Source: Phoronis australis (Eukaryota; Animalia; Phoronida). From it: a DNA stretch of 64,000 nucleotides. The notes under the pieces are model-generated. The model had not been told where the DNA came from, did not search any database, and was given only the letters and a program-made list of their open reading frames with translations. The stretch lies in the NCBI GenBank assembly GCA_002633005.1, contig NMRA01000375.1, positions 136,241-200,240 of the forward strand. The letters run 5' to 3'. Made by a program: the position numbers and the translations under genes. Position 1 is the stretch's first letter, and each line of letters starts with the position of its first letter. Of this stretch, positions 16,011-46,200 are shown one piece after another.

Positions 16011-16250
16011 GGGGCTTGGAACTTTCCTCTTCTAAGAGGAATTCCTCTATTTTGGCTTTGATTTCCTCTTATTTGATTTCTTGTTTCCTCTTTATATCTT
16101 TACTTTGAATTTATTGGTGCAAAAATGTTCATTTCATTTACATTTTACAACACAAAAAAATATTTCTTTCACACAAGCCCATTTATTAGTGGAACCATGC
16201 ATTACATGGAAAATTATCATCTCTTTTGTCATTGGTCACTCCAAGCCCTG
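16011..16250. mobile_element. Small MITE with GGGCTTGGA...TCCAAGCCC termini (duplicated at ~17353-17591; related right end at ~405-418)
   Basis: Short terminal inverted repeats plus internal TTTCCTCT repeats; no clear target-site duplication. Confidence 0.4.
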
Positions 16251-16612
16251 AGTAGGTAAACGTTATAATTGTTAATGCATAAGATTTTACATAGTTCTTC
16301 TGCCGACTGACATCACTTCGGTATACATTGTGGCAATAGTTACTTTCAGGGGTCCTGGGTTTTGAGAATCATTTTGATGTCTACTATTCAATTGATACTA
16401 ATAACGTGACCTTAGTCTCCTGCACAGACTCAATGACGAGAATGAGCTTTCCGTGACGTCAGCTTGTGAGGCCCGGGAAACAGGCGTAACGTGACCTTAA
16501 GTAGTTTGACATTCGTATTTGCTAAGTTTGTTTGCCTAAAAGGGGGATGTCATATATGGAGGTCGTAACCCTGTGTTGACCCCTGACCTCGGTTACTGTT
16601 CCTGTAATGCAT

Positions 16613-19970: not shown

Positions 19971-20432
19971 AAATATAAATCGGTAAATAAAACAACAAGA
20001 ATGGATCAACTGAAATTTGAAATTTTCGGAGGTAACAACTTCCTTTATCAACAAAAACAGAAATAAAGTAAAATCAAACACGAAATGACAATTGACATAT
20101 AAGATATGGTGTAATGAAAATGATACATTTTTGCGTAAAAAATTCAATGACATATTTTAAGTTTTTATGTTCAATCCATGAGGTTCTATTGTATTCAGTT
20201 TGTCTATCCAATATTGTTCTCTTTTAAGTCTGTGAGGGGTACTGGGGTGTTGGAGTTTTTCTATTATTTGTACAGAAAGATCTTGAATATTATGGTTTTT
20301 GGAATTGAAATGATTACCTACAGTATCAGAAATGTTTTTATGTATTATGTTAAATCTATGATTACGAAACCGAGTTTGTAGATTATGTTGAGTTTGTCCT
20401 ACGTATTGGATAGAACATTTTTTACAAGTTAT
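19971..20432 (-). mobile_element. Penelope-like retroelement, 3' end (GIY-YIG endonuclease C-terminal part plus 3' tail), truncated by the gap
   Basis: Open frame 20432-20157: ITCKKCSIQYVGQTQHNLQTRFRNH...VGNHF...RLKREQYWIDKLNTIEPHGLN, matching the PLE-type GIY-YIG pattern (CxxC, YVGQT, RFxxH, RExxWI, PxGLN). Confidence 0.85.
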
Positions 20433-21585: not shown

Positions 21586-23150
21586 GTTCTGATCTTAATA
21601 TAGCAGTTGAACATGTGACTCCGTCTCGTTTACATGCATACATGACAGTATACCCGTCTATTGTTCACATAATATTCATTTTGGGACTGATAGGTGTTGA
21701 AATCTCAGAATTTGGCTCAGTGGTCAGGTTGTTTTGATGACGGTGATACCCGGGTGGTCCAACAGTATATGCAGTTTCAGTTGAGGCACGGTTACTTCGA
21801 CAGATATGTCGCATGAGAACAAAAACATGTCTCTGCCGGGTTCCCACTATAGCAGGGATGCTTTAAAAATTTTGACAACATTATTTGTATACTAGAAGTT
21901 TATCCAAGGAAACGCTCCATTTTTTAATTCAACATAAAGACTCAGTGCCGAATGTCGATAAGACTAAACAGTGGGTGATTTTATACGAAAGTCCTTGGCT
22001 ATTTTTATAGTCATTTCTGGTTAGACTCATTGTCTTTAGTAATCCAAGTCGGTGTCAAATGAATCTCTCAGGTTTGTCTGCACCACCTTAAAATGGTATA
22101 AAACACATGCAAATTTAGATGGTTTATAGTGTGAGCTTGGGCTGACCAACCCGGCGTACGTTCGTTCTGTGGTTTTATCCGACATCTGTGCTTCTCCCCT
22201 GCCATTTTACTTGTTCTATTCACGAGCCTTTCTTGTTTTGATGGTTGACTACTAATTAAAAGCTTCTAAATGTTCACTAAAAATCCATTGTCGTTTTCTA
22301 TGACGATAGAAAACCACTTGCGGGAATTTAGAATTTATCCAATTATGAACATGCGACTGAAAAAGAATAGGCCCCAGTATTACTGGCTTTTCCTAGCTGT
22401 TAAAATTTCGTTTCAGAAAGAATTTCCGCCGCAGTTTCCAACGGAGGGTGGTCTATGCGTTCAGGCGCCGCACAGGCATTGCTTTTTTGTCAGGATTTGT
22501 CCCTTGCGTGCTATCGACAACCGGAACCAGTTGATGATTTTCAGTTACGGAGAGTGGGTTGTTGTCAGAGTCGAGAGGGTGTTGTCGTCTACATAATTGA
22601 CCAGTGTAGATTTTTTTGACAAAAAAGATGTTGTCACTGTTGCTCAGTTGTTAAGCAGCTTACTTTTTTTAGTCCCACACATTTCATCACTGTATTTCGG
22701 ATATGAACAACTGCATGTTTTACCTAGGACCAATATCAATGTATATTATTCCCAGGTTTTACTGAGAGAGTCTTGCCTGAAGCCACTCAGTCTCGCTCAT
22801 TTTCCAGGTTACGTAAATTCAAATTCAATAAAGGCTTTGTGTTCGGCATTGCGTTGAAGTTACACAAGTGTGTGACATAACCCGCTCTCTTGATAGGTTG
22901 AATATTATGTCACTGAGCTGTATAAGCCGCCCTCTGGCGAAGCATTACCAAACTACGTCTTTAAAAAAATCAAATTTTTCCTCAATATGGCTTAGTCTGA
23001 ACGTAGTATGTTTTTTCATGTGGCAGAAAACATCAATTAAAATGTTTTTTCTGTTGTTATTGATGATATTTTTTAACTTTACCGTGCACTATTTTTCATC
23101 AAATTACTACACCTGCAGTGTTTACGTAAATCATCATTCGTCTTGTGCAG

Positions 23151-23223: not shown

Positions 23224-25267
23224 GTGAGTTAAATATGAATTACAGGTTTGACAGCCTTTTAATATATTTGTTCACAAAGGCTTGATTTTCTTTGTCAAGC
23301 TGATTTTTAGATTAGCTTGAGTTTTGATCGGCTGTGTAGAGCTCTGATTGTACCTGCGGCTGTCACTGTCAGTATCAAGAATATCAGTCTGGTATCTTTG
23401 TCTCAGGTAGCGAAAATGGTCTGGATTATGGAGGTCATGTGTTACCTAATTTCAACATGATTGAAACATAAAGTGTGCTGGGTGAACTATCCAAATAGTT
23501 AGATTGCATGAGTGATTGTGAAATGCCATTACACAGAGTTGGATGACATGCAGAATTTTATTTGTTGGCCTATGCAAGTACAATGCTTGTAGTTGTAGTG
23601 TGTAAATCAAAAAGTCCATTGGATGGATATGGCGATGTGGCCTCAAGACTCGATAATAGACCAGTATTTTGATAGACAATATGCAGTTCTGTACGGAGCT
23701 GTGGATCAAATACAGCTTAAAATCGTCAGCAGAATCTTGTGGCTGTCAGGATTTGAATGCAGTATTTTGTGGTTACTTGTAGATATATTTGAGCATATAA
23801 CTCATGATGTGTTCACAAGTTCCAAACGAAGGATTTTGATTGACAGGATTGCATAGTGTGTGTCCATTTAATGCCAGGACTTTTGTCATTGTCTGCATGA
23901 AGATTGGTGCATTATTGCCAGTGGTGTTGTCATGACCGGAATCACACACAGATTTCCTCAGCTTTTGATCGTCCCCTTATTGGATTGGAGACAATCAGAA
24001 GCTGAAGATGCATGTGGAATTACTTATCACTGTCACGAGGAATATGTTAAGGCAATAAGACTTTCTTGTGGCATAATTTACCAATACTGCAACATATCCA
24101 TCAGGCATGTAGTTCTCTGGTCTCCTTTTCGTGTCGTTCATGTTTCTCATGTTATTTGTAATTGGTACAGGTTGCTTTTTTCAATTTTTTCTCAACCACA
24201 TTATGTGTAGTAGACCTTCCAATGCCAGCAAAGTACGCGTTACTGCTGTGCTGTTGGTTGGAATTCTGGCAGCAGAAAGTTGGATAAACTTAAGAAGTAT
24301 CGGTTGAATGGCGTGGATGCATTTGTTTTCCAACATGATTCCTAGAATTCGACAAACATTGTTTAGCCGAGGCCTATTTACTAAGGCAGTTCCCTTCGTC
24401 CAGGAAAAAGGAGATTGAAAAACATCACACCAGCTTAATTTTGTTACATATAATGTGTGATATATACTGCTAAGTTTGTTGAACCATCCAGATAGTTAAA
24501 ACTATTCGAAACCCATAAAAATTGACCAATTAAAACAGTTAAGTGTTGGTGACGTCGTTGTCTTTGAAGTAATCGTAAGGTAGTGCTGCATGATGTATCC
24601 CGAGCACCCTTGGACTTCTTAATCTGGCAATTTTAGAACATTTACATGTGATAATTTACTTAAAAGTCATCGATGATTCGAGCAAATATTTAAGAAAATA
24701 TTAGCAATGACACTGCCTTTTTTGTTGACGACAGCAGTGGCCCCTGATGATAACTTTGATGAAATGGAAATTGACAGTTCGCACATCGCATCGTCGACGA
24801 CTCAATGTCAAATCCTCCTGTTCACTGCGAAGTTATCTGGCGCTGGATTGAAATTAACAGTACATACTGACCACAACTCCCCAAAACGTTGCATCGACAT
24901 TAGTATGATAGGACCAATGGACACCATATTCTGTAGTCCCAGCTCAACATTTGACAATGGATCCCTAAGCTCAATGGTCCTCTGTTGTAAAAATGGTAAA
25001 ACTAATTGTATGGTCACATGATCCAGTGTAAAGTTTAAAATCAATATTTCTACAGGTTTTGTGGCGAAATACGCACAGTTGTCTAAAAGGTCGTACATTT
25101 TAACTAACCCTTCATGTCGCCTATTGTTATTCAGCTCAAGCAGGTTGCAGTATGGAACTTGACTTATGCAGTGAGATTCTTTGAACTGCATTTTGAGGCT
25201 GAATTTCGGATTGTTTTAGTTTTTAATTGAAAATTTTCTTTAATTTGTAGAGATATACGCAGAAGTC

Positions 25268-28200
25268 ATGGGATTTTTTTACCAACTGAAACTTCTGTTG
25301 TGGAAGAACTATGTGCTACGAAAACGACAACCGGTAAGTTTTTTTTACATTTTGAAAATAAATCCAGTTAAACCAAATTGTTGTGAAGGCCCAAAGAGTG
25401 TGAAGTAATCGCTTCCTCCAGGCAATTCTTTTTATTAGTTTATGATGTTATATCAGGGTATCATAAAGGAGATTATAGACATGACCATTGATGATCTGTT
25501 TAGTGCTTGACCACTGAAGGCACTCTCCCATTAGAGGTGAAACTTCACTTTTACCAAAGTTTCGGTTAGTTAGAAAGGTTAAATCCCTTAATTAAACTGC
25601 AACAGAAACTTCGATTAAAATAGCAGGATTTAAAAGCAAACCTTTGGTACTTGCTGAAGCTTTGGTGTTATGGGAATGGGGTTGCGGTGGCTAATTAAGT
25701 CCAGGAGTTCTTCGGTCCCGTAGTACGGGAATCCTCAAAAAAAGTTGGGTGTTGTGGTGTTGGTGGGAAAGTGTTCCCATTGGTCAACTTCTTCCATCAT
25801 ACATAATATTATGTACCGTGTATATAATCTTGCAAAAAAGTAAGATTGCACAAGATCAGGTGAAATCACACGAGTGTTGGTTTGCGTGGGTCTTCATTAG
25901 CATAAGCAGTTGGCCATATAGCAACCATTGCAGCGATTGGTCGGTGAGGTTGTATGTTGAATTACAGGATCGAATTGATTTTTCTGTTCCGTAAGCGGAT
26001 ATTTCTCGTCATTAAACATGTCTGATGTAGCAGGGTTACAGATTGTAGCTCTGTTCACATGCAGTTTCCACTGTTTGCGTTCACATGCTGTGTAATTTTC
26101 CAGTTCTGGTTGATAGTAGAACTCGTGTGGCCTTTACTTCTCTTCATCATTTTGGCATTAGTGAAAATGAGGCCAATCAACCAAGCTATACATGAATGTG
26201 AGTATTTATTTATTTTTAGCTTGGGTAAATATTTCTTTGGTATATCTTAATAGTGATGATGGGTAGAAGTATACCAATTAGATAGATATATAAAACTTTA
26301 TTGCGGACATACGGAAAATACACATAATGCATTACAGCAAGAACACTTGTCCATACGATTTAAAAACTGATGTACATGTTTAATATGTAGAGTCAATTTG
26401 CAACACTGAACATCAAAAAGATTGTACAGCCTGCTGGTAAAGACACAAGTAAACATTCTTCAACTTGGGACGAAAATAATCACAAAAATTGACTTTCTTT
26501 TTTGAAGAGCTTACTATATTTTATCGAATGCTTGCAATGTTACCAAATGTTGTTTTTCTGTGATAACTGTTATTCATAAAGCAGGCTGGGAATGAAGTAA
26601 AACTTATGTGCCATTTTTGCCAGGAAGGCATAAAATTTTGTCTGTTAATGAATTCTAGACAATTACAAGCACTTTCTTTCTACTGCAGAAATATCTTTAA
26701 AAATGATTGATTGCGAGTATGTGCAGCATGATGTTAGCATCTTCCAATTCTTGAGTTTTTACCCACAATGCTTAGTATCAATAGAGCACTCCTACTATTC
26801 GCTATTCTACATTTAAATTGGTTTGCCATTCATAATTTTAGTGCCTTTAATGAGTTGCAGTGCTGGCATAAAATTGGAAATCCAGGTGAGGCAAGAAATA
26901 TCGTTCTTCACTTGCCGCACTCGAATCAGCAACTTGTTGGTGACCCTAAATCAATCACACAATGCATCTTTTTAACTCTCTAAAACAGGAGAGTTGCATT
27001 TGGGAATTGGGACTCCTCATACTGTTGCTGACATCATAAGTTTGTTGCTAGGTCACTACGATGGTAAGGCGATGCCCTCTGCTGGTGCCATACCATTTCT
27101 TCAAGGAATTATATGCTCTTCAAACAACACATGTTATCGAAGGGACCGTGAAGATGAACTGGCTGGTCAGGTGACCAATTTCAACCAATCACAGTAAGTA
27201 AATTTATAACTGCAACATATTCTTCTTGTTCTAATTGTTTGGACATATTTTCATTAATTTTTTTTCGAATCCGAATGTTTTAAATCCATTCAGCTATGGG
27301 AAGCAAAGCAATAATTAATTCATGTTTGAGGATTGTATCTGGTGGGATTTTTCTCAGCAGTTTAGGACACAATACGGATGACACGTGCTATTCATTTTCT
27401 CATTTTTTTCTCAGGGAAGAGGAGGGAGATGGGGATAGGGCAAAGTAGGGGTGAGGGGAAGGGGCGGAAAGAAGAGAGGTGTAGCAGAATCAGCATGCTG
27501 TCAGTTTTGTGATCATTTTTACAGAATCAACATGCTGCTTGGTGACATTGAGACCTTACTCGCTAACAACTCAGACGTGAATGAGTTGCTGAAGATTGTC
27601 GAGGATTTTGAAACCTTGAACAAAATTCTGGACAAAGCACGCAATGGGTCTCTTCAAGGTAAATCTTCAATAACATGCACTGCCAGTCACATGTCAGTTG
27701 ATATGAAGAGTCTAGACGGTGGTTCAATTGTCTAATGACTTACTAAGGTTTCTTTTAAAGCTGATGCTTTTGGTCCCCTTTGTGGTTACTAGTAATGTTC
27801 ATGTTAGTTTGTTGATTAGGATTTTCGGGGTATTTTGAAAATGCCTGAGTAGAAGGCTATGCATGTATTCTGACGTTTTTTGTGCCCTGTGTATTGGAGC
27901 TGCACTTTCTTGGCGGTTTATTGTGAGCTATTTCCTCAACATACGAAATTTTATGTTTGCTGTTAATTCATAGTACTTTGAGAATTTTGTGACAGAAGCT
28001 GTTCATGATGAGAAAGATCGTATGACTATTGTTAACAAATTTTGAGGCCAGCTCAATGAAAGGAAACAGTTTTATGCCTTAGAATGTTTGAACTGCATGT
28101 TGGCATATTCATAAAATACCCTCTGTGTTTAAAATATTTTGTTTTTGGTACAGCTTTGTTCAGTTATAGCATGGAAATCTCATTTCCTGAAAAAATGCTC

Positions 28201-31200
28201 CAAAACTCTGTTTTGCGTCATTCTAATATCCACCTGTAAACACGGTAAAATCCATAAACAAACACTAGGTATCTTTACATGCACATAATAATGACAATTG
28301 GTTTTGTAAGCCACAAGGTGTTTCATTTTTAACTTCCCTGTCTGTAGCCAGTGCGATGAAAGCACTAAGGTCACCACTCACTAACAGGAAATATAAGTCA
28401 TGTGACCACTCCTGCATGTGTGTGTGTGTGTGTGTTTGTGTGTAGCTTAGCACTGTGTATGTCATGCTCATCAGATTGTGGTTGATAAGTCTGATTTGGA
28501 GGTTTAGCTCATTGGAATTGATATTGATCATGTTCACTTCTTGGAAATGATAGAGGTTATGTTCAGTGAAGTGCCCATAGGAGTATTTACTAGGTCAATT
28601 TATTTTTAGTGCTTATGCATTGTCATTTTATTACTGATAACCACTCCTCAAATTTTCAGTGCAAATTCTCGAGTGCTTGTCTGGGCTACCTGCTGAGATG
28701 TTTTAGTTGGCTCTTTCGACAACAGGGGGGCTGTAAACTTCTGATAACATTTACTCGTTATTATTTACATGAGGTCTTGTGTAATTGTAAAAGTTGTAAC
28801 CCTTGAAAAAAGCCCTGCTTTTGTATCATATATCAGAATGTCTTCTGACACAAGTGAAAATTTTTAGATACTCTACTTTATTCCCTGTTTTGAGCAAATG
28901 ACACGAAATTCTCCGTTATGGCGGCTAGGCAGAAGCCAAACTCATCGTCTTCGTCGTTTTCCCGCATGACCCAGATTGAAGGGGAATTAACGGTGGAAGT
29001 TGGTCAGGTGGCTCAGCCATTCTGTAATTTAAATCCTTCCCCATAATTAGCAGTCTTCTTTGCTCTTTACAGAATTTGCTGTCATTATCGAGAAAATGGT
29101 ATTTTGTCTGATTACTCTTGCCTTGTAGTGTATTTGTCACTTTTTCTGAACACAAATCAATACAATTAATTGCATTTTAAATCCGTGTGCCTCATCTCTG
29201 AATCACAGTTGATACCCGATTATTGAAGTTTGTTACAACCAAGATTCATATATCTAGTAGAATCCTCAAACTTCCAAATACTGGGTAAATAAAGACAATC
29301 AATGTAACTTCATGCTTCTGCAACATGTTTTTGAAGATTTTTTTTTGAGTTTATGAAACCTAAAAATAATGTGCCATAAAATGGGTTACAATTTTACATA
29401 GCCTGTATTTACGCTCAGTGGTATTTCCTCTGACACTATTACAATTTGGCCACCTTTTGTGCTTTCTTTGTTGGGACTGTCCAGTTCTTTAAAGGTTCGT
29501 CTTGCATCCTGCCACACAATCAAAATGTCTCGCTTTCGAACACCCGTGGCAAAATTGATCTATTACTTTCCCGAACGATTAACCTGTATTTTCTCGTTTA
29601 TCTAAAGAAACAAGAAACGCCAGTGGGGCATTTTTGGTTGTTGCACTGGAATATGACATTTTTTGTCAGCACGGATCCAGATGTCTTCTTCTTCAAGCTA
29701 GATGTCCAACTTTTCGTTTTCGATTTGGAATACTAGTAGCTTTGGAGACTTTGGTAGCTCTTTGGAGCTATGCTTTTCACGATCTTGCATCAAAAACAAT
29801 ACATTCTTCATTACAATGTCATTTATATTCTACTTTTGTTCGTTGAGTTGCCAAGCTGACACCAGGACTAATTATCCATAGTAACGTTTTTTCTTGTCCC
29901 TCCCAGCTCTGAAGTGTCTCTGAAGGCCTGACATTCAGTCAACTGTTTTCTACCTCCGCAATGAGGAGAGTTTAGTCCGGAACTGCGCTGTTGTGGTTGT
30001 GATAATGATGATCTGATGTAGTGTAAACGAGGAATTCTAAGTGATTGTTCTTGTTGCATGACTCCATGACAGGTGGCCAGCTGTCAGTGGACAGTTTGTT
30101 TACGAATCCAGCGAAAGTCCGTGCTGAGTTGATGTCTTCGAACGCGTCTTTGACTGAGGAAGAAGTGAATGTGTTGTTTAATTCTACACTTAACATACCT
30201 CAGGTAAGTGGTGATGAATGTTTTTTATGAAACCCCAATTTCCTTATAAGTGACATGCATACTTAGGCCAGAAATTAAGAAGGTTTAAAGTTGCAGTAAT
30301 TGTTTGTTCTTTTTCCACAAATTATAAGTGTTTTACAAGTAAACAATCTTGTGTAGTTCCACATTTTAAATGTAGAGGTCACTTGTTAAGGGAAAAAGAG
30401 AAATTTAATTCTGCTATTTCACACAAAAATAATTGCCAAAATTGTTATTTTTCTATTTTTTCGCTAATTTAAACTCTACTAAAAATTGTTTTATGACATC
30501 TACACACTAAAAACTAAGCTAACAACAGAGACTAAAATTGTCGCAATTTGTTCTGAAATTCAACATTATGTTTCACTAGTCTGCCATATTGTGTGCTAAA
30601 CAAATGAAGAGTTACTGAGTGTGAATATAAGGTTGTTAAATGTTAAGTTATAACCAGTGTATTGTGTGATTCATCAGTCGCAATAATATTGATGATCTAT
30701 AGCAAGTTTATCCATTCACCTTTTATTTTGCCTTTTTGTTTGTCCAGCTGATGCCCTTCACTGCCCACTATACACATGTCATAGGAACGTTTTATTGTGT
30801 TACAGCTGTTAAAGGACAGTAATATTCCACTGAGTCCAGAAGACTTCGTGTCGCGTAACCCACTGAACCCAACCAATGCGCTTACCCAACTCAGTGAACT
30901 TCTCACCCTGGTGGGTGGACTGACCTTCCTCCCTACCAGCGAGACTGTTCTGCGTGGCATACTTTGCAATGAAACACTCTTGCAGCGTTACGTGACTTAC
31001 TCTGACAGCCAAGTGGGACTCAATGCCACTCGTCGACTGTGTTCACTCAACTCACTCACCTGGGTTGATGTAGTACGGCAACAGTTTGACCAGGCCAAGC
31101 TACAAGCACAGGTAACTATCGCTATTTGGCCTTATCGCATTCATCAGTGTCGACGCCCACATTATGCATAATTTTTTACTTTCAGACATCTATATTCTAT

Positions 31201-34200
31201 TACACCGCACTCAAAGCCAACCACCAAACCAAATTTTGGGTAACACATCAATATGTTCAGTTATTCCAGTTTGAATACCTAGTGTGTTCTGGATGTATCT
31301 AACGAAACGGCTAACCTAGAACATCTGTGTGCTCCTTTTAAACCGCCAGGCTCCCAGATGAATACTGTAGGTTATAATGATGCTCCAAAGTAACACAATC
31401 TGATTTTAATTCCAGAAGTTTAAAATTACGACATTACTCTTGTTGGTAATTAAATTATTGGTTAGTATGCAATAATCAGTTTCCTTGATTGACAGTTTTA
31501 TGTCTGCACCAGCAAAAGTGAAACGAGTGTGACTAATAGTGTTGGATGACAGACGGCACTGATTCTGTCGTCAACTGCATTCATGTGGAACTATTTCATT
31601 ACAACAGTCCTTCAAGATAACTACTGTTTGGAATATTCCCAATGTAAAATATTCCTTCCATGTATTGTCTAGGTGCTGCAGTGGGTAGAGTTAAATGCTG
31701 GGAAAGCCATTCAGCTTAGTGAAGAGACAAGCGTGGCTGCCAGAAACTTATTTAGTGACGTAAGTAACATGCAGTTCGCTGTAAGTGCGGGCATTAAATG
31801 CACAGTAGGCTTCTTCCTGTAGTGACTAAAGATAAGCCTGCTTCTAAAACTACGCTATCTACTGTAGAAAGCCTTTCATTATGAATTTGAATGGGAATCC
31901 AGAGGTTAGGCTTAAGGAGGGATATAATTTGTTTGTGGATTATTGTTGGGTAGGTGTAGACTTCTTGAAGTTGTTAGCTTTGACCAGAGCAATTGTCAAC
32001 CAAATCGCCAATTCTCTCCTGACCATTGTCTGGCAGACATTTGCGGAAATCATAGCCTTTGACTTTACCTGGTCAATAAACTCTCTTAAAACACTGTCAT
32101 TTATTGAGTGGGATTTAACTCTGCCAGCAGATTTAGACTGCAACTGCAGGGGTTGCAGGTTCCATTCCGTTCTGAAACTGATCTCGAAAAATTATTTCTC
32201 TCACTAGTAATCACATGTAATTTTAGATAAAGGACCACTTCTGCCAATACTATGGCGCCCTTTCTAATTATGCTGTGTTTATCCACATTGCTGTGCATCT
32301 GGGAGGGGGGCACTTGGCCTGCTGTTGAATGGTGTTGGGCTTGTCACTACTACTTTAAATATTAAAATTAGTTTGTCATTTGCCCTTCTGGAATCAATAA
32401 AGTTTCACTAGAGTGGAGTAATAAAAAACTCGAAAGTTGAATGAGGTGTTGTAAAACGTTTGTCACTTGGTTGTCTTAGCTCAGAAAGTGTATTAGTGCC
32501 CCAACATTTCAAAAATTTGGTCAGTCACACAAGGTCTTTTCTACCTCTGCAAATAAAGAGCATCAGTTTCAGGATATGGGAATTACACGTGGGCAACTCT
32601 AAATTCATATTCATTGGTTAATTCACTTGAAGAGTACATGATCCACATACACAGATCTGTGTTATTAACGTGTGAATCCTAATCAGTGTTAAACGTTACA
32701 TGAGAAGGAAATCTGGAAAGTGGGGTGGACTTAACTTTCTGTATCCGTCATACGTCATACTCTGTTATTTTATGAATTGGTTTTGGTTAGATAAACAACA
32801 CATGCCATTCCTGCCACATTTGGGGAAATATTCACCAACTTGAATTGTGAGCTCACGCTGAAGTCATCACTATAAGAACAATACTACTATTGTGGGTGTT
32901 TTGTTTTTCGTTTAAAGACCACTATCATCTAAGTTTTTAATATCTTACTGCTCTATGTGACTATTGTGTTGTTTAATGGCAACCCTCACAGGCAGGTGAC
33001 ATCTTATCAATATTGCAGTTTGAAAGCCATGGTGCATTTGGCTGGAGTGTTCATGAAAGTCATGCATCAACATTCTTGGATAAACCACTAACCACCTCAC
33101 TATCGACACTGATAGTGTGGTAGGCCATTGGTCAGGGTTCATTGTCACTGAAAAACTTCTTTGTATGATTTCTAGTTGGCCGCATTAAGCAGCATGTCAA
33201 CTGTATCAAACAACATCCTGAAAGACTTGAGAGGACCGGCAGCGGACTTGGACTCTGGCAACACTTTCGGTTCGGTTGCCAAGTTGTTCTGCGGACGCTC
33301 CGATGGCTTCTTCGGAAAAGTGGGCCAACAACAGATGGCGTATAGAAGAGTGACAAATGGGACCAAAGGGAACAATGGGACGGTTGTTGACATAGGTATG
33401 TACTCACGAGTAAACGTTCCTTGTAATAGGTTGAGTGTCAGCATGAGGGACAATTCACATGTTGGACACCTACTGTTCCTGTGAGCTCATCTTAGACTGT
33501 GACAATACCTGGGTTGTAGTTTTCAGACAAATAAAGACAAATTTCTTAGATCACAATTTTACTTACAAAGCGTATTTTTTTTTAATATTTGACTTAGAGT
33601 TGATGTCGTTTATTAAGGTTCTAGAAGATCTTAATTTTTTCTAAATTTTCTTAAATTTCTAATTGAGTTTAACTGTTAAAATGATGATGTAGTTTTTAAC
33701 GTTTCTGTGTATGAACCTGGACCCTGTTGGAAAACCATGCTGGAATCACAGAAGAGGTTTTCAATCCTGATGATATAGTCACTTGCAGTGGTGTTGCGTT
33801 ATGAGAACCAGTTTGATGCCTGTTATTCAGTGGAGAAAAGCTGGTTCACAAAATGTAAGACAATCATCAGTAGATCTTTTGTGGCTGTGCTCCATGCATA
33901 TTACATTGAATACTATGTTCCAGGCTGTAAAAACTCCACGTTGGGGACGGAATACATGGGTCAGCAAAGCATGACTGCCATCGGTACACCCTGTCAACCG
34001 TGGACCTCACAGTCACCACACACACACAGCTTCACGGGCAACAGCTTACCTGATGGCTCACTGAAGGCTGCTGAAAACTACTGCCGTAACCCTGACAATG
34101 AAGACAGTGGCCCTTGGTGTTTCACTATGGACCCCGACATCAGATTCGACTTTTGTCACGTGCCACGGTGTTCTGCTAGTAAGTCCTGTGCTGTTAGGCG

Positions 34201-37200
34201 TTAGTTAACCATTGCGTTATATCCCACAGTGACCAGTGTATTTCATTGTGTATTGTGAGTGAGTGCTATAGGTGTGAGGTGGGTGAGTGTAGCTCGTTTC
34301 TAATGGGCAACTGTTTGCCTATGGCTGTGTGAGATTCCATGGGCTAAGTGCGGGGAAATATACTTTTTAGTTCGTGGACTCCATATTTCACTCAGACAGC
34401 AAACAAAAGGATAACTGCTGTAAGTTACAGTTGACTTGTGTAATAAACTTGGTTTTAAAAATTGTCCTTATCTTGAAGGAGAATATTTAAAAAAATTTGC
34501 CATAATTATTCTGCGATGCCTGTCACAGTACTGTTTTTATTACAAAAAATATTATGTACAATATTAATTGCAAAGCGTTATAAGAGGATGTTGATGAAAT
34601 ACCTTGGTTTTCATCATTGCTTTACATAGTAAATCCACTGTTGCACCATACAGATTGTTGTGTAAGCCTTACCTGTCAAATATCTTTCTGGCAGATCTTG
34701 ATCAAGTTTGGTTGCCACGTTCTGTTCCCCATGTCTGGTCAATAAGTTCTCTACTCTTTCTATTAACTTTTTGACACGGTATCAGTTGAATATGTCTCAG
34801 TTAGGAAATGTCACTTTGTTAATTAATTGTAGACCACTCCAATGAGGAGACCAAGGGAGGTAACTCCGATGGTGCGTACTGTTACTTTCCGTTTTACTTC
34901 AACGGGACCATGCATGACAAGTGCATATACAGTCGTAGAGGAGCTTGGTGTGCCACCACCGCCAATTTTACCAGGGACCGCAAGTGGGGAAGATGCAGTG
35001 AGTAGATCACACTTTACAGCTTGTTTCACTTCTGTGCAACAACTTTTTAATAATGTCCCGACTCAGTGACTGGGTTTCATGCTTCACGTTGCTTAAATTT
35101 TTAAATCCATGAGCAGATTGCTTGTAGTAATGGGTTCACAGAATCATTCATAGGAATACTCCGTTCATATGAAGTGGCCCCAAACCTGTGTTCCCTCAGA
35201 GAAAACGAACTACGCACAACTATAAAACCGGACTCAATTTGTCCATAACTGAGAGGAGAAGTGGTTTTAGGCTTTGCAAAAACTGGCAGTCAGTTATGGC
35301 TTCAAAGCATGCTGGGCACATCAAATGACCATAATGAGCCAACATGTAGAGCATTGTGCCAACAATAGTGTGCGAACTGTCAGTTCTTCTCAAGCCAAAA
35401 GTCACCTTTAATTTGGGGGGGTGGAGTTGTAACGAGCAGCTCTCTACTCACTGTGCAGTTTGTTACGTTTGTAGTCGGGACAAGAAATATTTAAATGTGT
35501 CTCGGTCAATGTCTCAACGTGCCACTCGTTTTTTGCATTGATTTTGTAGATTAGTTTCTGCGCGTTGCTTAGTAAGTGGGATATTATCACCTCGGCCAAC
35601 ATTGCCAACTGCTATGCCTGCTTGTGTTGTTCCAGAAACTACATGCGAGAAGCTATTTGAGCCACTTAGAGAGTCCAAAGAAGGCAAATTGTTCTGGAAA
35701 CAGCTGAAGCCCATGTTACAAGGCCGTATTCCTTATGCACCCCACAATCCTGTCACTGAGCGAATCATGCGGCAGGTAAGAGTTATCTAATAAGAAGTCC
35801 GTCGCGTAATAAAAATCGAAATTCTGCAGGCTTTGTGCTTTCTGAAAATATTACTTTTACTGACTCAGTTAAAATCTAGTTTTCTAGATGCTTTGCTAAA
35901 CATGCTAAGTTGTCAATAAGGTCCTTAATATGCTATATTGACTGATTATGTCTGTTTGTTCATTCATAGCTGTTTTATGTTGCAGGCCAATGTGTCCTTT
36001 GATGGCCTGGGTCGACTAAAGAACCTTGCTCAGGACTGGTTAAACTACTCCTCCACCTTTGTTCAGTACATGAACACCAGTGAAAATATTCAACTTATAC
36101 GAGTATGTAGTTAGCATTTCTGTTGCAAACTGTGATTATTTCGCTGAGTCCCAGGTGTATCAAAGATTGAGACTATTAAGTACAACTAATGGGTAAAACA
36201 TTTTGTTTCCTTTTGGATATTGAACAGTATTACACGAACACTGTCTGATTCCTCTGTCCTCTGATTGGCTGAATTGCGGTACTTCAAACTAGTGTGGCAT
36301 ATCACTTTTCATTTATGCTGCTTGTGCTTTAAATGTTGCTATTTGCGATCTAACCAATCAGATGTTGTTGAAACCATAAACCTGGACAGCGAAGTAAGCA
36401 AACGATATCAGTACTTTAAAGCTTGCAAGAATAAGCTATGAACAGATGAAACAACAAGAGGAAAAGCTCATCAGTGGCCGTGTTATGGAAACCGTTATAC
36501 CGTTTCCTCAGGAGTATTAGATCGTATTACAATCCCTCCGTCCATATGACTGGATATCACATATGGTATTGGTCCATACTTGTATATTGTTCAACTCACA
36601 AATTTATCAACAAAGCAATATTAAGAGAGTTTTACTCCGCCTAATTTGCACTTAACTGGTGTCAAAATGGGATATGGTCCTCTTTTGGTTTTTTGTTTCT
36701 AGGTAGTCATCTTTTGAATGACAATTTTGTCAATAGTTGTTGTGTCACAATTTCATCAGGATTGCATGATGAGATTACTAACTGTGGAAATTTCTTCTAA
36801 AAATCCAGGAAATTAACCATTAAACGGCAGACGTTTTCGAAAGTCGATGTTGACTGCTTCCTTCCTCAGCTTAATATTCTCAATTTTATTCATTTTTTCA
36901 TTCCTCGAGTTAGTGAGCTCCGATAAGAATAAGCTGTAATTGACTTGTGTTTAGATTGCAAAATGATGCTTTTTGCTGTGGGATACATTTTTGATGCCAT
37001 TTCAGGATTTCATTAAGAGAGCTCTCCGTGGTACTAACCAGAATGCAACTGGGTACAGACAGCTGGCTGTCTGGGACAAATGGCTGTATAATGGTCCGAA
37101 GGAAAACTCCAGCTATGATTGGAGGGACAGTGTTAGATACATGAACGAATTTTCGAACCTCATTGTTGATAATTTGAACGTAAGTTAATGACTTGGTTTT

Positions 37201-40200
37201 CATTTCAAAATGTGCACTTTGTAATAAATGAAGAGCCTTAAAATGTTTCTATATCTTGGTCATCTGTGAGGGTGAAAATTGATACAATCTTATTCAAGGA
37301 ATAATATTATTTCTCCGGCAAGATAAGAGAGAGTGCACAGTGTTTGTCAGAAGCTATTACAACTTAATCTAGCTAGCCTGGTTAGATTTTATCATGCAAT
37401 CAGTGTGTCGCTGACCGTTGGCAGTTGGTTAACTTTCATTTTCCGTGAACTCAGTGCACAAGCTGAAATAGTTAATACACAGTATAATTCTGGTTGCTAG
37501 GTGAAATATTTGGTTGCACCTCCATTCTTCACCCCATAGAGCTAGTAATAGTAAAACATCTACACAGATCTCTTAAGTGGGAATCATTTTAGTGGCTTTT
37601 AAGTTGGTTGCATTCCCAATTTTCCTTAATTCTGCTATATACCAAGGGATGTTCATTGATTGCTTTTGCGGCTGGATTTGCTGATGGAAAGATTTTGATG
37701 AGAAAAGATTTGCTGAGTGCACAACCTTCACAGTTTTAACTCCCATACTTCTTTTCAGTGTTTTGAACTCAACAAGTTTGAGCCGATGTCTAGTGTTCGA
37801 CAGCTGGAGAAGCGTAGCATTGAGTATATCGAGTCGGGCATGTTCTGGGCAGGTAATGTTTCTCTATGATCGCCTGTTTGACAATTAGAGGATCTCTGTA
37901 ATAAAGCAAGATTACATAATATATACTGACAATTTTGTGCATTCATCACAATGAAATTTAGCCATGATTTTGATTATGATTGCAAAAAAGTGCTCTAATT
38001 TGAAAGGTTTTTCGTTCTATATGAAATAAATGTGATTCTATTTACAGCTATTCAGTTTGACAACATGGATGAGAATACAACTGAAATGCCAACCCACATT
38101 AAATACAGGCTGAGGATGGACGCATCAAAAGTAGATGGCACCACCAAAATATATGACAGGTGAGCGGTTGTGGCTTGTGGTTCTGGGAGGGTGGACAGTT
38201 GATAATGGTGGGTAACAGGAACTTGTGAGTAGACGATGGATGTAGGTGGGTGGCAGGTCTAATGGTCATTGTGTACCGGTGGCATGTGGGTCTTATAGGT
38301 AGAGGGTGGGTGATGGGCTTAGATTGGTGGTGGGTCCGGGGGGGTCATTGAGTACTGGTGGCATGTGCGTTGTTCTGAAATGAAGGTATGTTTGAGTAAA
38401 AGATGGGCACATTACCAAAGTGTAAGAAAGACTTGGCACGAAAATCAGCCAATCACATCTTGGGAAAACTGAAAGTTTACTCGAGTGGGTCCAGTCTTTC
38501 TTGAGTCAGGTTTTGAGTAAACTTAAGGAGGTTTGTATTGTTGAGGTCTGATTTGGTTGAGGGAAAGGTTGGCCTGGCTTGATGGTGGATTTGGGTGAAT
38601 AGTTGTTGGGCTGGGTGGGTGTATGGCGTGATATATTACAAACCTCAGGTAGATTCTCAGTGGTAGTTGGTGAGCACCAAAAATTTATGGAAGGTTTCTG
38701 TTAGTAGCATGACGTTAATGGTAGTTAGAAAAAATCTATCAGTGTTTCTTATGTTGTGATAGGTTTGTTAATTATTTGACGAGTGCAACCTGGTATGCAT
38801 GCATGCATTGTTTTCGGGACAGAATCTAACGGAAGCGTTTCCTTAAAGCTGTATTATGTTCCATTACATGATGATGTAATTTAAGTTCAACTTACTTTTC
38901 ATAGCTACTGGCGACCTGGTGGCCGTGCCAGGGCTGGGATTGACACGAAGTACATCACGTTTGGGTTCGCTTACTTACAAGACATGATAGAACATGGCAT
39001 CATTCGTGAGCAGACAGGAAATGAGGACCCTGGTGTATTTCTACAGCAGTTTCCCTATCCATGTTATATCAACGACAGGTACGTATTATTGAGACTTGAG
39101 ATCATGTTGGTCCAGTCAGTATTAACGATTCAAGGTCTTAGATGGCCTTTTTAATCATTGCCTGCCATAAACTTGGGACACGTGTCACCTTATGTATTCC
39201 TCATTCTTTGTTTACGACTTGTCATATGTTTGACTCCTCAGCGTGTGCCTATTTGACTCCCCGGGTTGGCAAGCTTGTCACATATTTTAATATTTAACTC
39301 CTTGGGCGTGCCTTTTTAGCTCTTAGTCACATTTTGGACAACTTTTGTGTGCCATGCTCTAGTCAACCAGTTCTCTTCATTGTTGTATTCTGGATAACAC
39401 CCTTAATGACATTTGATCATTGTCCTCCTTCATGTACACTCATGATTCTACTGTGAGCCACCTCTGTCTTAATGGAAATCCACTGCTCTCTGTACAGTCC
39501 TTGACTTGACCACACGTTTGTGTTCATCTGTTCATGGTCCTGTGTATCCTCATCCACTGTCCCAAACCATCCCTCTCTGTAAAACCGTTGACTTGACCAT
39601 ACCTTTGTGACCATCTGGCCACAGTCCTTCTAGGTATGCCCATCTACCATCGCAAACCATCCTTATACCAATTTACTCTCACGAGCCATAACTCTGTGTA
39701 CAGCCTTTGACTTGGTCACAACTTTGTGACCATGTGACTGCCGTCCTTCTAGGTAGGCCAATCTACTCTAATGGCCATACCTCTCTTTACAGCCTTTGAC
39801 TTGACCACACCTTTGTATCCATCTGACCACTGTTTTTCCAGATACGCTAATCTTCTCTCACGCGCCATCCCTCTCTTCATGGTCTTGGCCTGGATCTTCA
39901 CTGTCGCTTTTACTGTGAAGAACATTGTACGCGAGAAGGAGCGCCGCCTTAAGGAAGTGATGAAGATGATGGGTCTGACCAGTCTGGTACATTACGTGGG
40001 CTGGTTTGTCACCATCTTAATCACCATGATTCTCTCCATTATTATGCTGACGATGATCATAAAGGTATGAGGATTAGACCACTAAATTTGTAGACATGAT
40101 AGAACAGTACTATAATCTTTGAGTGCAGCTAGCCGTGATATGTAGTATAGTGATAATCTGTGGCTAGTTTTTCACACCTGTTGACTGTGACAACTGGGCC

Positions 40201-43200
40201 AATGAGTTCAGGTGATTACCGAGGTCAGTCGATAAAAACAGATCTTGCTCCAGAGTTCGCTTATTCGATTAACCAAACCTTATACCATCAGTAAATGGGG
40301 GAATGGTATTGGTTCTTTATTGGAGTGAATGATTGTATTGGTGGAACTCAACAGTTTGTGATGATTTTTTGCTTGAAAAATAATGTGTTGGTTGCTCCAA
40401 CAGTCTGTTTCACAAAACCTGAAACTATGAACAGTATACTGAGCCGAAGACTTAAAAAAACCTTGCATGAAGTCTATTAAAGCTGATTCTGAGGTCCATC
40501 TTTTACGGTTACCGGAAGTGCAGCCCACTGCTTAAAAATGGGAAAAAACACAAATCAGTCAATCAATGAATTTCCGCCAATCGTAACCCCCTGTTGCATC
40601 ATGTGTATGAATGTCTACGTAATCCATGTTGCATCATCGTTTCAGCTTGGTGGCGTATTTGAACACTCCGACGGCTTCATCATCTTTCTCTTCCTGCTCT
40701 GCTTCGCGGTGTGCACCATTCCCCAGTGTTTCTTCTTCAGCACCTTGTTCTCCAGGGCCAACCTTGCCGCAGTCTGCAGTCCTATCTTCTATTTTGTGCT
40801 CTACTTGCCCTACACCATGTTCATACAATGGGAGGAATATATGTCGACTGGCCAGAAGTTTGCTGGGGTAGGTACAACACTCAAATAGAAATGTGTTCCT
40901 TAACCAACTCAAACGTGACAATATATGCTCCATCTCATTGTACTGTTTGCAGTAGACCATAAGAAAAACAGTGATGTCACTGATTGGAATGAAGCCATCA
41001 TGGGGAATTCCAGGCGCTTGGAATGAAGCCATCATGGGGAATTCCAGGCGCTTATTTGTTATCAATTTCAGTTGGAATTGTGAGATGTCACCGTTTTGGA
41101 AGAGCTACACTGAAGAATGTTATTTTTGATACCAGAGCTGTCAGTGATTTACTGCAGTTTTAAAATAAATCTGAAATTGAATCCTAATACCGTGTTGTGT
41201 TGTATTTCAGTGTCTTCTGTCCACTGTTTCATTCGGATTTGGCTGTAGTTACATTGCGCGATATGAAGAACAGGCTATTGGGATACAGTGGGACAACATT
41301 GACTCCAGCCCAATGCCTGGGGATGGCTTCTCTCTATTACGCTGTATGATTCTGATGTTATTTGATGGGCTTATCTTCTGCATACTGACGTGGTACATCG
41401 AGTCTGTTTTCCCAGGTAGGAGTTGGCGCTTTATTAGTGCCTGGGTTCTGTTTCATGGAAAGTGATCTAAAACTTGGACAGAAATTTGGTCTTATGCTCC
41501 ACTTCGCAATTATTGCATAAATTTTACAGTAAAATCTCTCCACTTAGTGAAATATCATTTTTTCATGAAAGGCATATCAATTGGAATACTGTTCTCTGTT
41601 CAAGTACTAAACCATAGCTGTCTTCAGATTTCTTGAAAAAAAATGTGACCATTCATATAATTAATGTTAAAAACACTGAAAAATGAAAAAAATGTAATTT
41701 GTTTTTTCCGAATCGCCCTTGTCTTTGCATGTTTCGACCAATGTGGCTGTTGTTAAGTGACAGCTAAGTGTTTCTCAAGTGATTTCTGCTCATTACAAGT
41801 GTTACGCACACGGACTCTTCTTCTTAAGCTTCAATAGACACACAATGGCTTCTTTAATGTACATGTGTGTCTCTTAAACAGATTGAAGCAGCCATTTTTA
41901 AAATTTATCCTATCGTTCTTAATCGCATTTTTTCAACATTTACTGAATAGTGGTCTCAAAATGTGTCATTGTTTGAGGCTGCACTACCAGTTGCCCTGTT
42001 TATTTGGTGCTGATAGTGGCTCATGGCATGTTGTTGGTTCAACAGGCACCTACGGCCTACCCCAGCCTTGGTATTTCCCTTTCAAGAAGAGTTATTGGTG
42101 TGGCAATGCTCCTGTCGATGATGACGGTGTGACCTTTGACATGAGTGCCTACGACGCACAGCAAGGTATGTGAAGTGGGCTCCATATACTTCTGTGTGAG
42201 AACTCACTCACTGGGACATATGAATTTATTTATTTAAAACTTCAGTTAAGTGGATAAAGTTTGAGTCTAATACTGGAATGAAAATTTACAAAAATTGGTG
42301 ACGTTGCATCCGTATCTCACGGACTTCAGCTTGGCTTGTGACGTTATCGTTATTCTGGCCAATTGATGGCGTTTTGGCCAGACGGCGCGGCATTGACATC
42401 AGATGCAGACACAATGTCGCTAATTTTTGTAAGTTTTTATTCCAGTGTTAGACTCATACTTTATCAGATTTTCTCTACTGGATGTCTCACAATTTCAGTT
42501 AAGTCTTTGTGAAGCCCCATTGGGTAGATGAATCAAGTCTGTGTATCGTTTCATAGACCAATGCTGGCCACTGAAGTGATAAGTCGGTCAGTTTGCAGGT
42601 ACTGAATTCATAAATTTTGTATCTCATAAAATTTCTTGTTTCCATTCCATAAATAATGAAGATTGTTCGCTATGAGTGGAAGCTTATGTCTTGAAAGAGT
42701 CGAATGAATGTAGTCCTGTTATGTATATTACAATGTAGTCCTTGTGGGAGATATGAGATAAGTCTGTATGATATTCGGTAAATTTGTTCTATTACAGAGG
42801 AGCAGGGATTTGAGAAAGACCCTGTCGGGCTTCGCCTTGGAGTCTCCATCCAGAACTTGAAGAAAAGCTACAAGAAGGGCCAACTAGCCGTAGATGGACT
42901 AAGCTGTCGCTTCTTTGAGGGTCAAATTACGTCGTTTTTGGGTCACAATGGTGCTGGGAAGACGACAACCATGTAAGATTTAAAATGTAGTTTTCTTTGA
43001 TGTCTTCCAACGCCACAACACAATACTATTTATTATTGTTTATGCATATTCAAAACATACTGTTCTCCCAAAGACCTGTGTATGTGTAGTGCAGTTAGTC
43101 ATCTGATTGTCTGTTATCTTTTTCATGCAGTGCTGTCAGTTCATGAATGTTGTACTCATGGTGCCAGTCCAACATTCTTCTCATGTGTCAATTATTAATT

Positions 43201-46200
43201 CAACCAATCACTGATGACTTGTTGTTGCAGGTCCATCCTGACTGGCTTATTCCCGCCCTCTAGTGGAACTGCCTTCATTTATGATAAGGACATCAGACAT
43301 GACATGGACAAGATACGAAACAGTCTCGGCATGTGTCCGCAACACAACGTTCTCTTCGACCAGTATGTTTTCATTGGCTGATCCTTAAGTTTGGAAGTTT
43401 CTTGTCTTTAAATTTTCTAGTAAATGGACTGTGTATTTCAGAAGAGAGTGGAGTTCTGTTGAATATTTTACATGCTGCACCCCCTCCTTGTTGTGTATGC
43501 TGTAACAATGAGTTGGGAATCATATCTACATTTTGTGATTGAATTCTTGATCTGAAAATTAACATATTTAGTGGGTGACTTGTCTTAATGGGAGAGGTTT
43601 GTTTCTTCAGCTTTGAAAGTTGTTCAAAAACTACGTGCAGCCTCATGCACATGACTTCATCCAGGGGTTGTCTGAAAGGGGACTAACATTGGGTGTGTTC
43701 TTGACAGTCCACCATTTCGGCATTGTAGAAGTGACTTTGCAGTGTAGTCCAGACCACTGAATCCTGCTCTGAATAATATGATGTCAACTCAGCTATTTCT
43801 GTTAATTGTTCTACTTTTTTATCTTCCCAACTGTCAATGATGATGGCTGCTTCGTAAATTCAATGTTTGTCTTGTTGGTCAAACTTAGGCCTTAAATCCA
43901 GTTATTCCTTGTTGTGCTAGGCTCACAGTTGAAGAACACATGTGGTTCTATGCCCGCTTAAAAGGAATGCGTCCTGAAGATGTCATGACTGAGTTGGACC
44001 AAATGATTGAAGATGTCGGACTGCCTCATAAGAGACATGAGCTGTCCAAGTCTTTGTCTGGTAAGAACCACATCCTGTTTGTACCAGTGTTCACATAGCA
44101 TAGTCTTTTATCTGTTCACGATAGCAATACTACTGATATCCCTTGTGGTGTTCTGAGTCATTAATACTACTGCCAGCCTTTTGTTAAGCTTAGCAAAGAT
44201 GGAGAAATACGAGCTCAGCTCTCTCTCTACCTTCAGTGAAAGTCAGCTGAGCACATTGCTCATTTCAGGGCATTAACAAGTTTGTGATCAGCTTGTTCAT
44301 TCAGTTGTTGTATTTTGATGCCTTGACATGTGCGATGTGTTGGATAACTTTAACTTGAGAAAGGCTGCTGAGTTTGTGTCTCTTCCTCTACGTAGATCCT
44401 GAGAGCTTGCTAGATAGACTAGATCAATGTTTTCTCATCATTCCAGTGGGTTGTCTGCTGGTATCAAGCCTTAATTGTCTAAGTCTGGAGAAAATAAGAA
44501 AAACTTACTTGTCTATCAGCTGTCTCATTATGGCTAATCTTATTCCTAAGGACACATCTCACTGCATAAATGGATGGACAGTCCTAATTGTTAAAATTAT
44601 TATAATGTGTGTCATCATGGTCTTTGTGTTTCACTCAGGTGGAATGAAGCGTAAACTGTCTGTGGCCATTGCATTTGGAGGGGGTTCCAAGACGGTTATT
44701 CTTGACGAACCAACAGCAGGTGTCGATCCTGCAGCCAGGAGGCAAATCTGGGAACTAATACTGAACTACAAGCGAGGTAACAGCTCATCTCTGTTGTATG
44801 CACAATGAACAATAATTTCTTGGATAATATATTGGTAGTGATTTTGGCTCCTTTTCAAACGTTCTGTTTGCCAACATTCTATTTTCAAACCTTATTCAGG
44901 CTTTCGGATATGCAATCTTATGACATTACGCTCACTTAGTTTATTGTCGGAGTAATGTACATATGCTCTTAAATAATTTGATTCTCATTTTCTGAAAGCC
45001 GTTTAAAAACTTTTTTCCAACTGACTACGACCAAGTTTTGTCGGAAGGTTTCTTCAGTTGGTATTCCTTAAAATTTTCGTTAGTGAATATGAATTTGTTG
45101 TTTATTTTCCAATTGTCCCACAGACCGCACCATACTTCTGACCACTCATCACATGGACGAAGCTGATGTCTTGGGCGATCGTATCGCCATCATTGCTAAG
45201 GGTAAACTGCGATGCTGTGGTTCTAGTCTCTTCTTGAAGAGTCACTATGGCAACGGCTACTACCTGACCATCGTCAAAAGTGAAGACTCACGGCCCTCGA
45301 CTGGTCAGAGTCACACACTGACGATTCCCAAGGTTTGTGAAGTGCTTATTAAGCCCACTGTAACATTACGCTTGATGAAATATCCAATCCGTTATGTTAG
45401 AGCTTTGCTTTTAATGATTGACTAGAAATTAATGTTCGTCTTACTGTTTTCAGTCGCTTCTGTCTTGAGACTTCTTCAATAAGTTCTTGGCGTCACTTGG
45501 AAATTAAGGAATGTAACTTTAACTGGGGTGCTGCGTTTATTGTTTCCTATATAGGCTGAAAACTTAATTTTGGCACACCTCAGCTTGTCGTCAGGTTTTT
45601 TTCAACTGTTATAAGCTATTAGTCAACATGTAACATGTTTTCAGATAAACGAAGATGACGAGGGGTATACTACAAAGTCTGAGCGCAGTGACAGTGAGCC
45701 TCCATCAAAATCTTCAACCCCTCCCCCTATTGCGGAAGACCGTATTACGTCAACCATCCAGCGGTTTTTGCCTGATGCTCGTCTTGTTGAGGACGTCGGG
45801 CAGGAGATGTGTTATCAACTTCCAGAAGAGGGCGCTAAATCTGGAGCATTTGTCAAGCTTTTTACGTATTTGGACCTTAACTTGGAGAGTCTGCAGATCT
45901 CGGGATACGGCATTTCAGACACCACTTTGGAAGAGGTACTAGCTGGTATCCCTTGGTATAGGGACTTGTAAAATTCAAGTTTTAGGGGAAATGGGTGCCT
46001 GAGACAATACCGAATGATGAAAACCTGTCCCTCCCTTCCTGCTTCTTTCGTTTATGAACCAGAGATGGTGCTTTTGCCTGACTCTCAAACTTTCAGGGGT
46101 ATTATTGTTGATGAAATCAATCCTTATTAAAATTTTAAGGCCATGTACGAATTTCAAGTCTGTGCATTCAATCAAAAATCTAAAGAACCAGGAAATTTAA

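Follow-up and report, generated by a model that had tools for sequence, protein, structure and literature searches.

Kringle and fibronectin type II (FN2) domains are classic class 1-1 modules, and shuffled extracellular modules are rare in ATP-binding cassette (ABC) transporters. Among the closest described transporters, ABCA4 possesses a flexible, substrate-binding S-loop near the transmembrane region, a segment that is unresolved in the ABCA1 structure (PMC8219669), and the mode of acceptor engagement by ABCA1-type pumps is not yet settled (PMC13161189). Here, we characterize a 64,000-nucleotide stretch of the Phoronis australis genome (assembly GCA_002633005.1, contig NMRA01000375.1, positions 136,241 to 200,240 of the forward strand; hereafter the window), in which an ABCA1/4/7-type transporter gene holds a kringle exon and an FN2 exon within its first extracellular domain (ECD1). 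No description of an ABCA protein with kringle, FN2 or ephrin-like modules was found in the literature searched, which lay largely outside subscription journals and outside supplementary domain tables; the available parts of PMC10792246 and PMC13161189 contain nothing on the loop that hosts the two modules, the equivalent of the S-loop. Taken as a whole, the explanation that we favour, and for which we judge the chances to be about even, is an ABCA1-type pump in which an exon-shuffled kringle and FN2 serve as a tethered docking site.

The host gene and its cassette exons

The window gene is a full ABCA transporter, encoded on the forward strand from an ATG at 25268 to past 63848 (the stop codon was not placed inside the window) and organized as TMD1-ECD1-NBD1-R1-TMD2-ECD2-NBD2-R2, that is, as transmembrane (TMD), extracellular (ECD), nucleotide-binding (NBD) and regulatory (R) domains in two successive sets. 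Joined by coordinates, 27 exons between 25268 and 46552, an interval with zero N letters, yield 1477 codons and no stops, and residues 18-2341 of the 2410 in an ABCA1-like protein of the chiton Liolophura map collinearly onto the window (tblastn). A large ECD1 with conserved cysteines follows the first transmembrane segment, both NBDs carry Walker A, signature and Walker B motifs, and the gene matches the ABC_tran and R1_ABCA1 profiles as well as a regulatory domain after the NBD (PF23321, 92.6 bits, 62522-62761). On ABCA family membership alone, the protein would be expected to carry out ATP-dependent lipid export to an acceptor.

For RNA evidence, three raw-read runs (X1, X2 and X3; about one fifth of each) were mapped to 25000-44900, and splicing was read from the best-supported 15 of 32 joints together with 12 of the 13 rows of a second joint table. 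Many ABCA introns are crossed by spliced reads. The ECD1 exon ahead of the cassette (33176..33395, +; joint 31758-33176 in 4 X2 reads) ends in phase 1 and encodes the xxCG cysteine (model C359) together with 35 residues at the start of the loop that is equivalent to the S-loop. It is followed by a phase-1 GT..AG intron (33396..33923, +; acceptor 8.5 bits, typical of the gene), the 255-nt kringle exon (33924..34178, +), a second phase-1 intron (34179..34832, +; acceptor 1.2 bits, the weakest of 26 scored), the 165-nt FN2 exon (34833..34997, +), a third phase-1 intron (34998..35635, +) whose 3′ end occupies an ancient position three codons ahead of a conserved cysteine, and the ECD1 exon that bears this cysteine (35636..35775, +; model C537, equivalent to ABCA1 C355 and ABCA4 C370), which 22 reads join to the next exon. 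Exon coordinates, AG/GT borders of the four exons, junction codons (G|GC, A|AC and A|AA), the kept frame free of stops and the N-glycan sequons NST, NGT and NFT of the cassette region all agree with a preliminary description made from the letters of the window.

Each module exon starts and ends in phase 1, has a length that is a multiple of three and encodes exactly one module, such that both conform to exon-shuffled modules of class 1-1 (a 3n exon with phase-1 introns on both sides). The complete six-cysteine kringle and four-cysteine FN2 domain named in the preliminary description are borne out by Pfam, with PF00051 at 86.6 bits (cut-off 34.3; Cys395, 417, 447, 459, 471 and 476) and PF00040 at 50.2 bits (cut-off 22.2; Cys495, 509, 518 and 533). 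No second kringle or FN2 lies within the window. Modelled by AlphaFold from its sequence alone, the kringle gave a structure too low in confidence to be informative (pLDDT 37).

We consider it very probable that the kringle-FN2-ABCA architecture is expressed as one protein. The FN2 exon is joined to the following ECD1 exon (34997-35636) by 13 spliced reads from 3/3 runs (7, 3 and 3 in X1, X2 and X3), and 3 X1 reads, with one allelic letter, join 34178 to the FN2 exon. Exonic reads are stranded, and 19 of the 21 exonic read differences checked (from 40 of 261 rows plus one joint-table row) are synonymous, one in each module included. The combined transcript that had been proposed is in this way covered at two of its joints, but the third, 33395-33924, is absent among the best 15 of 32 joints and the 12 of 13 table rows, which weighs against a single continuous message; this splice is inferred because its signals and frame fit. 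No exon joints were seen in the X4 contigs.

The insertion site and its relatives

Positions of the flanking exons within ECD1 are well defined on the downstream side, where the exon after the cassette aligns with human ABCA1 355-397 and ABCA4 370-412; the exon before it (33176-33395) has, alone, no Pfam or solved-structure match and aligns with ABCA1-like proteins as part of their N-terminal half. The loop between the xxCG cysteine, to which we take the label C309 to apply, and the conserved cysteine (model C359 to C537) has a median length of 47 residues in the 204 of 221 proteins in which it was measurable (17 were not), and ranges from 35 to 358 residues in homologs, with three of the seven loops of at least 100 residues being mis-anchored vertebrate sequences. 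In the window the loop measures 177 residues, or 37 without the cassette. Because the vertebrate NWYE motif stands 15 residues past the xxCG cysteine, fitting the spacing of ABCA4 C324 to W339, the loop corresponds to the ABCA4 S-loop (W339, Y340, Y345 and F348). The window's loop has no NWYE motif, and the four aromatics expected of an ABCA4-type retinoid flippase are missing from it.

The acceptor at 35636 is in phase 1 and splits the codon three before the conserved cysteine. Human ABCA4 intron 8 (IVS8) starts at c.1099+1 (PMC6121640), which falls within codon 367 in phase 1 and so marks the very position of the 35636 junction; seven of the 11 related loci also have an acceptor there, and at least two of the remaining four read straight through. 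Since the position is common to human ABCA4 and these seven loci, the cassette sits in an ancient intron, into which the kringle and FN2 were likely added by exon shuffling. Both the S-loop equivalence and the ancient phase-1 intron are points that the preliminary description had missed. Transposon-like repeats flanking the cassette were not found. The intron before the kringle also contains a short repeat core, high in copy number and with inverted ends (33802-33855), which is matched on both strands by thousands of RNA reads from elsewhere.

Relatives were collected by two homolog searches of a 5.8-billion-sequence collection, from which the 120 best matches of each, cluster representatives only, were kept. 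Neither list holds a Kringle or fn2 domain, although the window's own model would rank inside both; as only representatives are listed, and as an FN2-bearing Lingula model sat behind one of them, this absence is weak evidence. A profile scan of the first 354 proteins recovered no Kringle and no fn2, the 46-residue downstream exon, used as a query, had no match among proteins of 82-2000 residues, and 74 metagenome loci showed no kringle or FN2, although only 13 of these extended as far as the exon that follows the loop and a smaller number covered the preceding intron. Among the 373 proteins ultimately fetched, 235 of them long ABCA sequences of at least 1200 residues, no kringle was present in any and FN2 in one alone.

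This one is an older ABCA1-like model of Lingula anatina (P0373; UniParc UPI0006978077; 2681 residues), found among cluster members, which, in its 410-653 segment, carries three FN2 modules at 462-649 (149 bits) and no kringle between the same two cysteines that enclose the window's cassette; in both proteins the last FN2 cysteine lies four residues ahead of the conserved cysteine. The uniqueness implied by the preliminary description therefore stands for the kringle, which is the new element, and falls for the remainder: ABCA with FN2 in the same loop is already present in this retired database model, other modules occupy the loop in Mytilus, and the way in which such modules arise is textbook knowledge. 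In RefSeq, the current Lingula model begins at the exon boundary directly after the FN2 modules.

With the cassette removed, a tree of 19 sequences and 1649 columns (SH-aLRT and aBayes on the best tree, plus FastTree) places the window's protein among lophotrochozoan ABCA1-like proteins, with Lingula P0373 as its sister (SH-aLRT 91.4, aBayes 1.0, FastTree 0.98); the two are 62% identical in the aligned core. From this placement, the FN2 module is fairly likely to share its origin with that of Lingula and would predate the split of the two genes from their common ancestor, and the kringle would be a later gain in the window's lineage, or a loss in Lingula. Several observations count against a shared origin. 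P0373 is itself a gene model, and in the current record, XP_013414368.2 (P0187), its N-terminal part is missing and residues 651-2681 remain; shorter alignments support the Lingula grouping at just 0.47-0.55; and the window's FN2 is 35-45% identical to the Lingula copies, scoring 34 bits against the best of them and 47 bits against MMP2. Because it is no closer to Lingula than to MMP2, a shared origin is argued from tree and position alone.

ABCA1-like proteins of five Mytilus species carry 5-7 Ephrin_rec_like (PF07699) repeats in the same ECD1 loop, with inserts of 260-358 residues and 30-42 cysteines in models P0185, P0175, P0191, P0355, P0358 and P0369 (examples are XP_071145778.1, CAC5414478.1 and XP_052099237.1). 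Judging by how these sequences nest among insert-free bivalve ones, the Mytilus insert is of separate origin. Loops are plain in the nemertean, annelid, chiton, gastropod, cephalopod, other bivalve, arthropod and deuterostome sequences examined. Such a repeatedly hit site, the low identity of the modules (35-45%) and the single copy against three would all be accommodated if the FN2 of the window's lineage and that of Lingula were separate arrivals in this intron, much as another kind of module reached the loop in Mytilus; we regard this as doubtful, given that the FN2-bearing proteins are sisters with the cassette removed and share identical junction spacing.

Predicted binding surfaces and competing explanations

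The lysine site of the kringle was assessed by alignment to plasminogen kringle 1, read against Table 1 of PMC11231438, in which lysine-binding kringles have D54, D/E56, W61, Y/F/H63, R70 and Y/W71. The corresponding residues D451, E453, W458, F460, R467 and F468 fit at five of six positions, with Phe at position 71, and follow the plasminogen kringle 2 (K2) pattern tabulated there except for this last aromatic. The kringle thereby appears to keep a predicted lysine-binding site of the weak type. For the FN2 module, PDC-109 provides a reference in which tryptophans engage choline by cation-pi contacts and tyrosines Y75 and Y100, with Y108 at the rim, bind phosphate by hydrogen bonds (PMC2823774), and choline lipids are ligands of the FN2 modules in BSP proteins (PMC4476173). 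When residues are counted from the cysteines at either end of the 69-109 match, the window's FN2 retains both choline-cage tryptophans of that description (W517 and W530). Among solved structures, it best matches the modules by which MMP2, MMP9 and fibronectin bind gelatin.

By analogy with the ABCA4 structure, the flexible S-loop would carry the cassette at its end, which would place the modules close to the outer leaflet and to the lateral gate. There, the kringle is predicted to bind weakly to a lysine-bearing protein, most likely a lipid acceptor, the FN2 module would give a second weak contact, to a choline lipid or to collagen, and together these contacts would keep acceptor and pump side by side during ATP-driven export. 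We rate slightly below even the chance that the cassette is such a low-affinity tethered docking site by the gate, likely for an extracellular lipid acceptor. A hybrid of receptor and transporter, as the preliminary description proposed, is plausible, with an FN2 pocket that deviates from that of PDC-109. The details that weigh against it are that K2-type kringles are the weakest lysine binders among the four binding kringles (PMC11231438), that the three PDC-109 tyrosines described in PMC2823774 are replaced by F501, F524 and R532, that Arg occupies a position held by Phe in MMP2/9, and that sequons N502 and N523 adjoin two residues of the FN2 pocket. Moreover, Argopecten P0008 has a 197-residue low-complexity repeat (~343-540) in the same loop, which may be partly a gene-model artefact (the near-identical P0262 has 80 residues there); the loop accepts plain low-complexity inserts, and therefore tolerance alone could explain the recurrence.

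Extended to the cassette, such tolerance would make the modules a glycosylated spacer or tolerated passengers, in a loop that takes almost any insert, with their folding kept against free cysteines and misfolding, or with the gate shielded, and no specific ligand engaged. Loops of 35-358 residues, low-complexity inserts included, three unrelated module types in one loop, sequons flanking the FN2 pocket and the missing PDC-109 tyrosines agree with this account. We find it unlikely, as the lysine-site residues of the kringle are kept though dispensable for the fold, FN2 has seemingly been retained in two genes that have diverged deeply (62% core identity), and neutral symmetric exons could vanish without a frameshift.

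A role as matrix or cell-surface anchor, with FN2 on collagen and the kringle on a lysine-bearing matrix protein, unrelated to any lipid acceptor, is suggested by the gelatin-binding modules that head the solved matches of FN2 and by Phe, as in MMPs, at PDC-109 tyrosine positions. Low avidity is expected of a single FN2, however, and the last pocket aromatic is replaced by Arg. The site also lies by the transport gate and not at the ectodomain top (PMC8219669), and we hold such anchoring to be quite unlikely.

The cassette could also be an alternatively spliced option. Both exons could be skipped without loss of frame, being 3n and in phase 1-1, and an ordinary ABCA protein with a 37-residue loop would result; of the acceptors scored in this gene, that of the FN2 exon is the weakest, and the upstream joint is absent among the best 15 of 32. 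Read depth matches that of constitutive exons, however, at 18 for the kringle exon (8, 7 and 3 at 34114 in X1, X2 and X3) and 15 for the FN2 exon (8, 2 and 5 at 34921), summed over the three runs, against 13-25 for six flanking exons, and no cassette-skipping joint occurs among the best-supported 15 of 32, so that many or most transcripts lacking one or both exons would be surprising. A misassembly or nested gene that places the two exons in an ABCA intron, foreseen in the preliminary description as a separate nested transcript, might be argued from the 0.8-1 kb duplications that stand uncollapsed at N joints in other parts of the window. It is largely refuted already and keeps almost no probability: 25268-46552 contains no N, reads of all three runs join FN2 to the ABCA exon, the stretch from the last in-frame stop to the kringle acceptor is free of ATG codons, and Lingula shows the same placement.

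More broadly, the S-loop intron of ABCA1-type transporters could be a recurrent plug-in socket, at which brachiopod-related and mussel lineages independently acquired folded binding modules (FN2, kringle and ephrin-receptor-like repeats) by the lipid gate, yielding receptor-transporter hybrids that would capture their own lipid acceptor without apoA-I, which to our knowledge these invertebrates lack; the same loop of human ABCA1 would then be marked as an acceptor or substrate docking site. We offer this as a speculation that is unlikely to hold. Three module types in one flexible gate-side loop point to a functional docking position, and the loop would lend itself to the insertion of engineered tags or targeting domains, with the modules themselves usable as baits for invertebrate lipid acceptors. 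Inserts of this kind may be annotated too rarely, since the truncation of the current Lingula RefSeq model falls precisely on this boundary between exons.

Other features of the window and comparison with described systems

Upstream of the ABCA gene, a dihydrolipoamide acyltransferase gene with lipoyl, E3-binding and catalytic domains occupies 5411-14139 (+), and, judging by a motif, it probably encodes the branched-chain E2 subunit DBT. Three near-identical duplications (96-97%), which are probably uncollapsed haplotypes, pair 15718-16498 with 17058-17837, 18931-19970 with 21648-22697, and 58691-59710 with 59708-60727; N positions or a gap of N mark where the copies meet, and the last pair repeats two NBD2 exons. 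A GIY-YIG endonuclease fragment (20160-20432, -; 30.6 bits) adjoins an 827-N gap and is likely a remnant of a Penelope-type retroelement. An intronic tandem repeat of ~23-nt units spans 55715-55939.

Compared with human ABCA1, ABCA4 and ABCA7 (7tby, 7lkp and 8edw), the window's protein has the common transporter layout and the ECD1 cysteines, and shares the phase-1 intron with ABCA4; the human loop, however, has ~44 residues, NWYE and no module, whereas that of the window has 177 residues with a kringle and FN2 and is without NWYE. Lingula P0373 resembles it in having FN2 in the same loop at equal spacing to the conserved cysteine, and differs in carrying three FN2 modules without a kringle. 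In Mytilus, disulfide-rich modules lie between the same two cysteines, but there the repeats replace nearly the entire loop. At the level of the modules, the kringle is like plasminogen kringle 2 in its fold residues and its predicted K2-type lysine site, and departs from it by Phe at position 71 and by being a single copy on a transporter. The FN2 module keeps the fold residues of PDC-109/BSP and MMP2/9 modules and both choline-cage tryptophans of PDC-109, whereas the tyrosines have become Phe, Phe and Arg and the module is single and transporter-tethered. Finally, as in the class 1-1 mosaic proteins covered by the available part of PMC8001218, the exons are 3n and flanked by phase-1 introns; unlike in those mosaics, the modules here lie inside the existing ectodomain of a 12-helix transporter.

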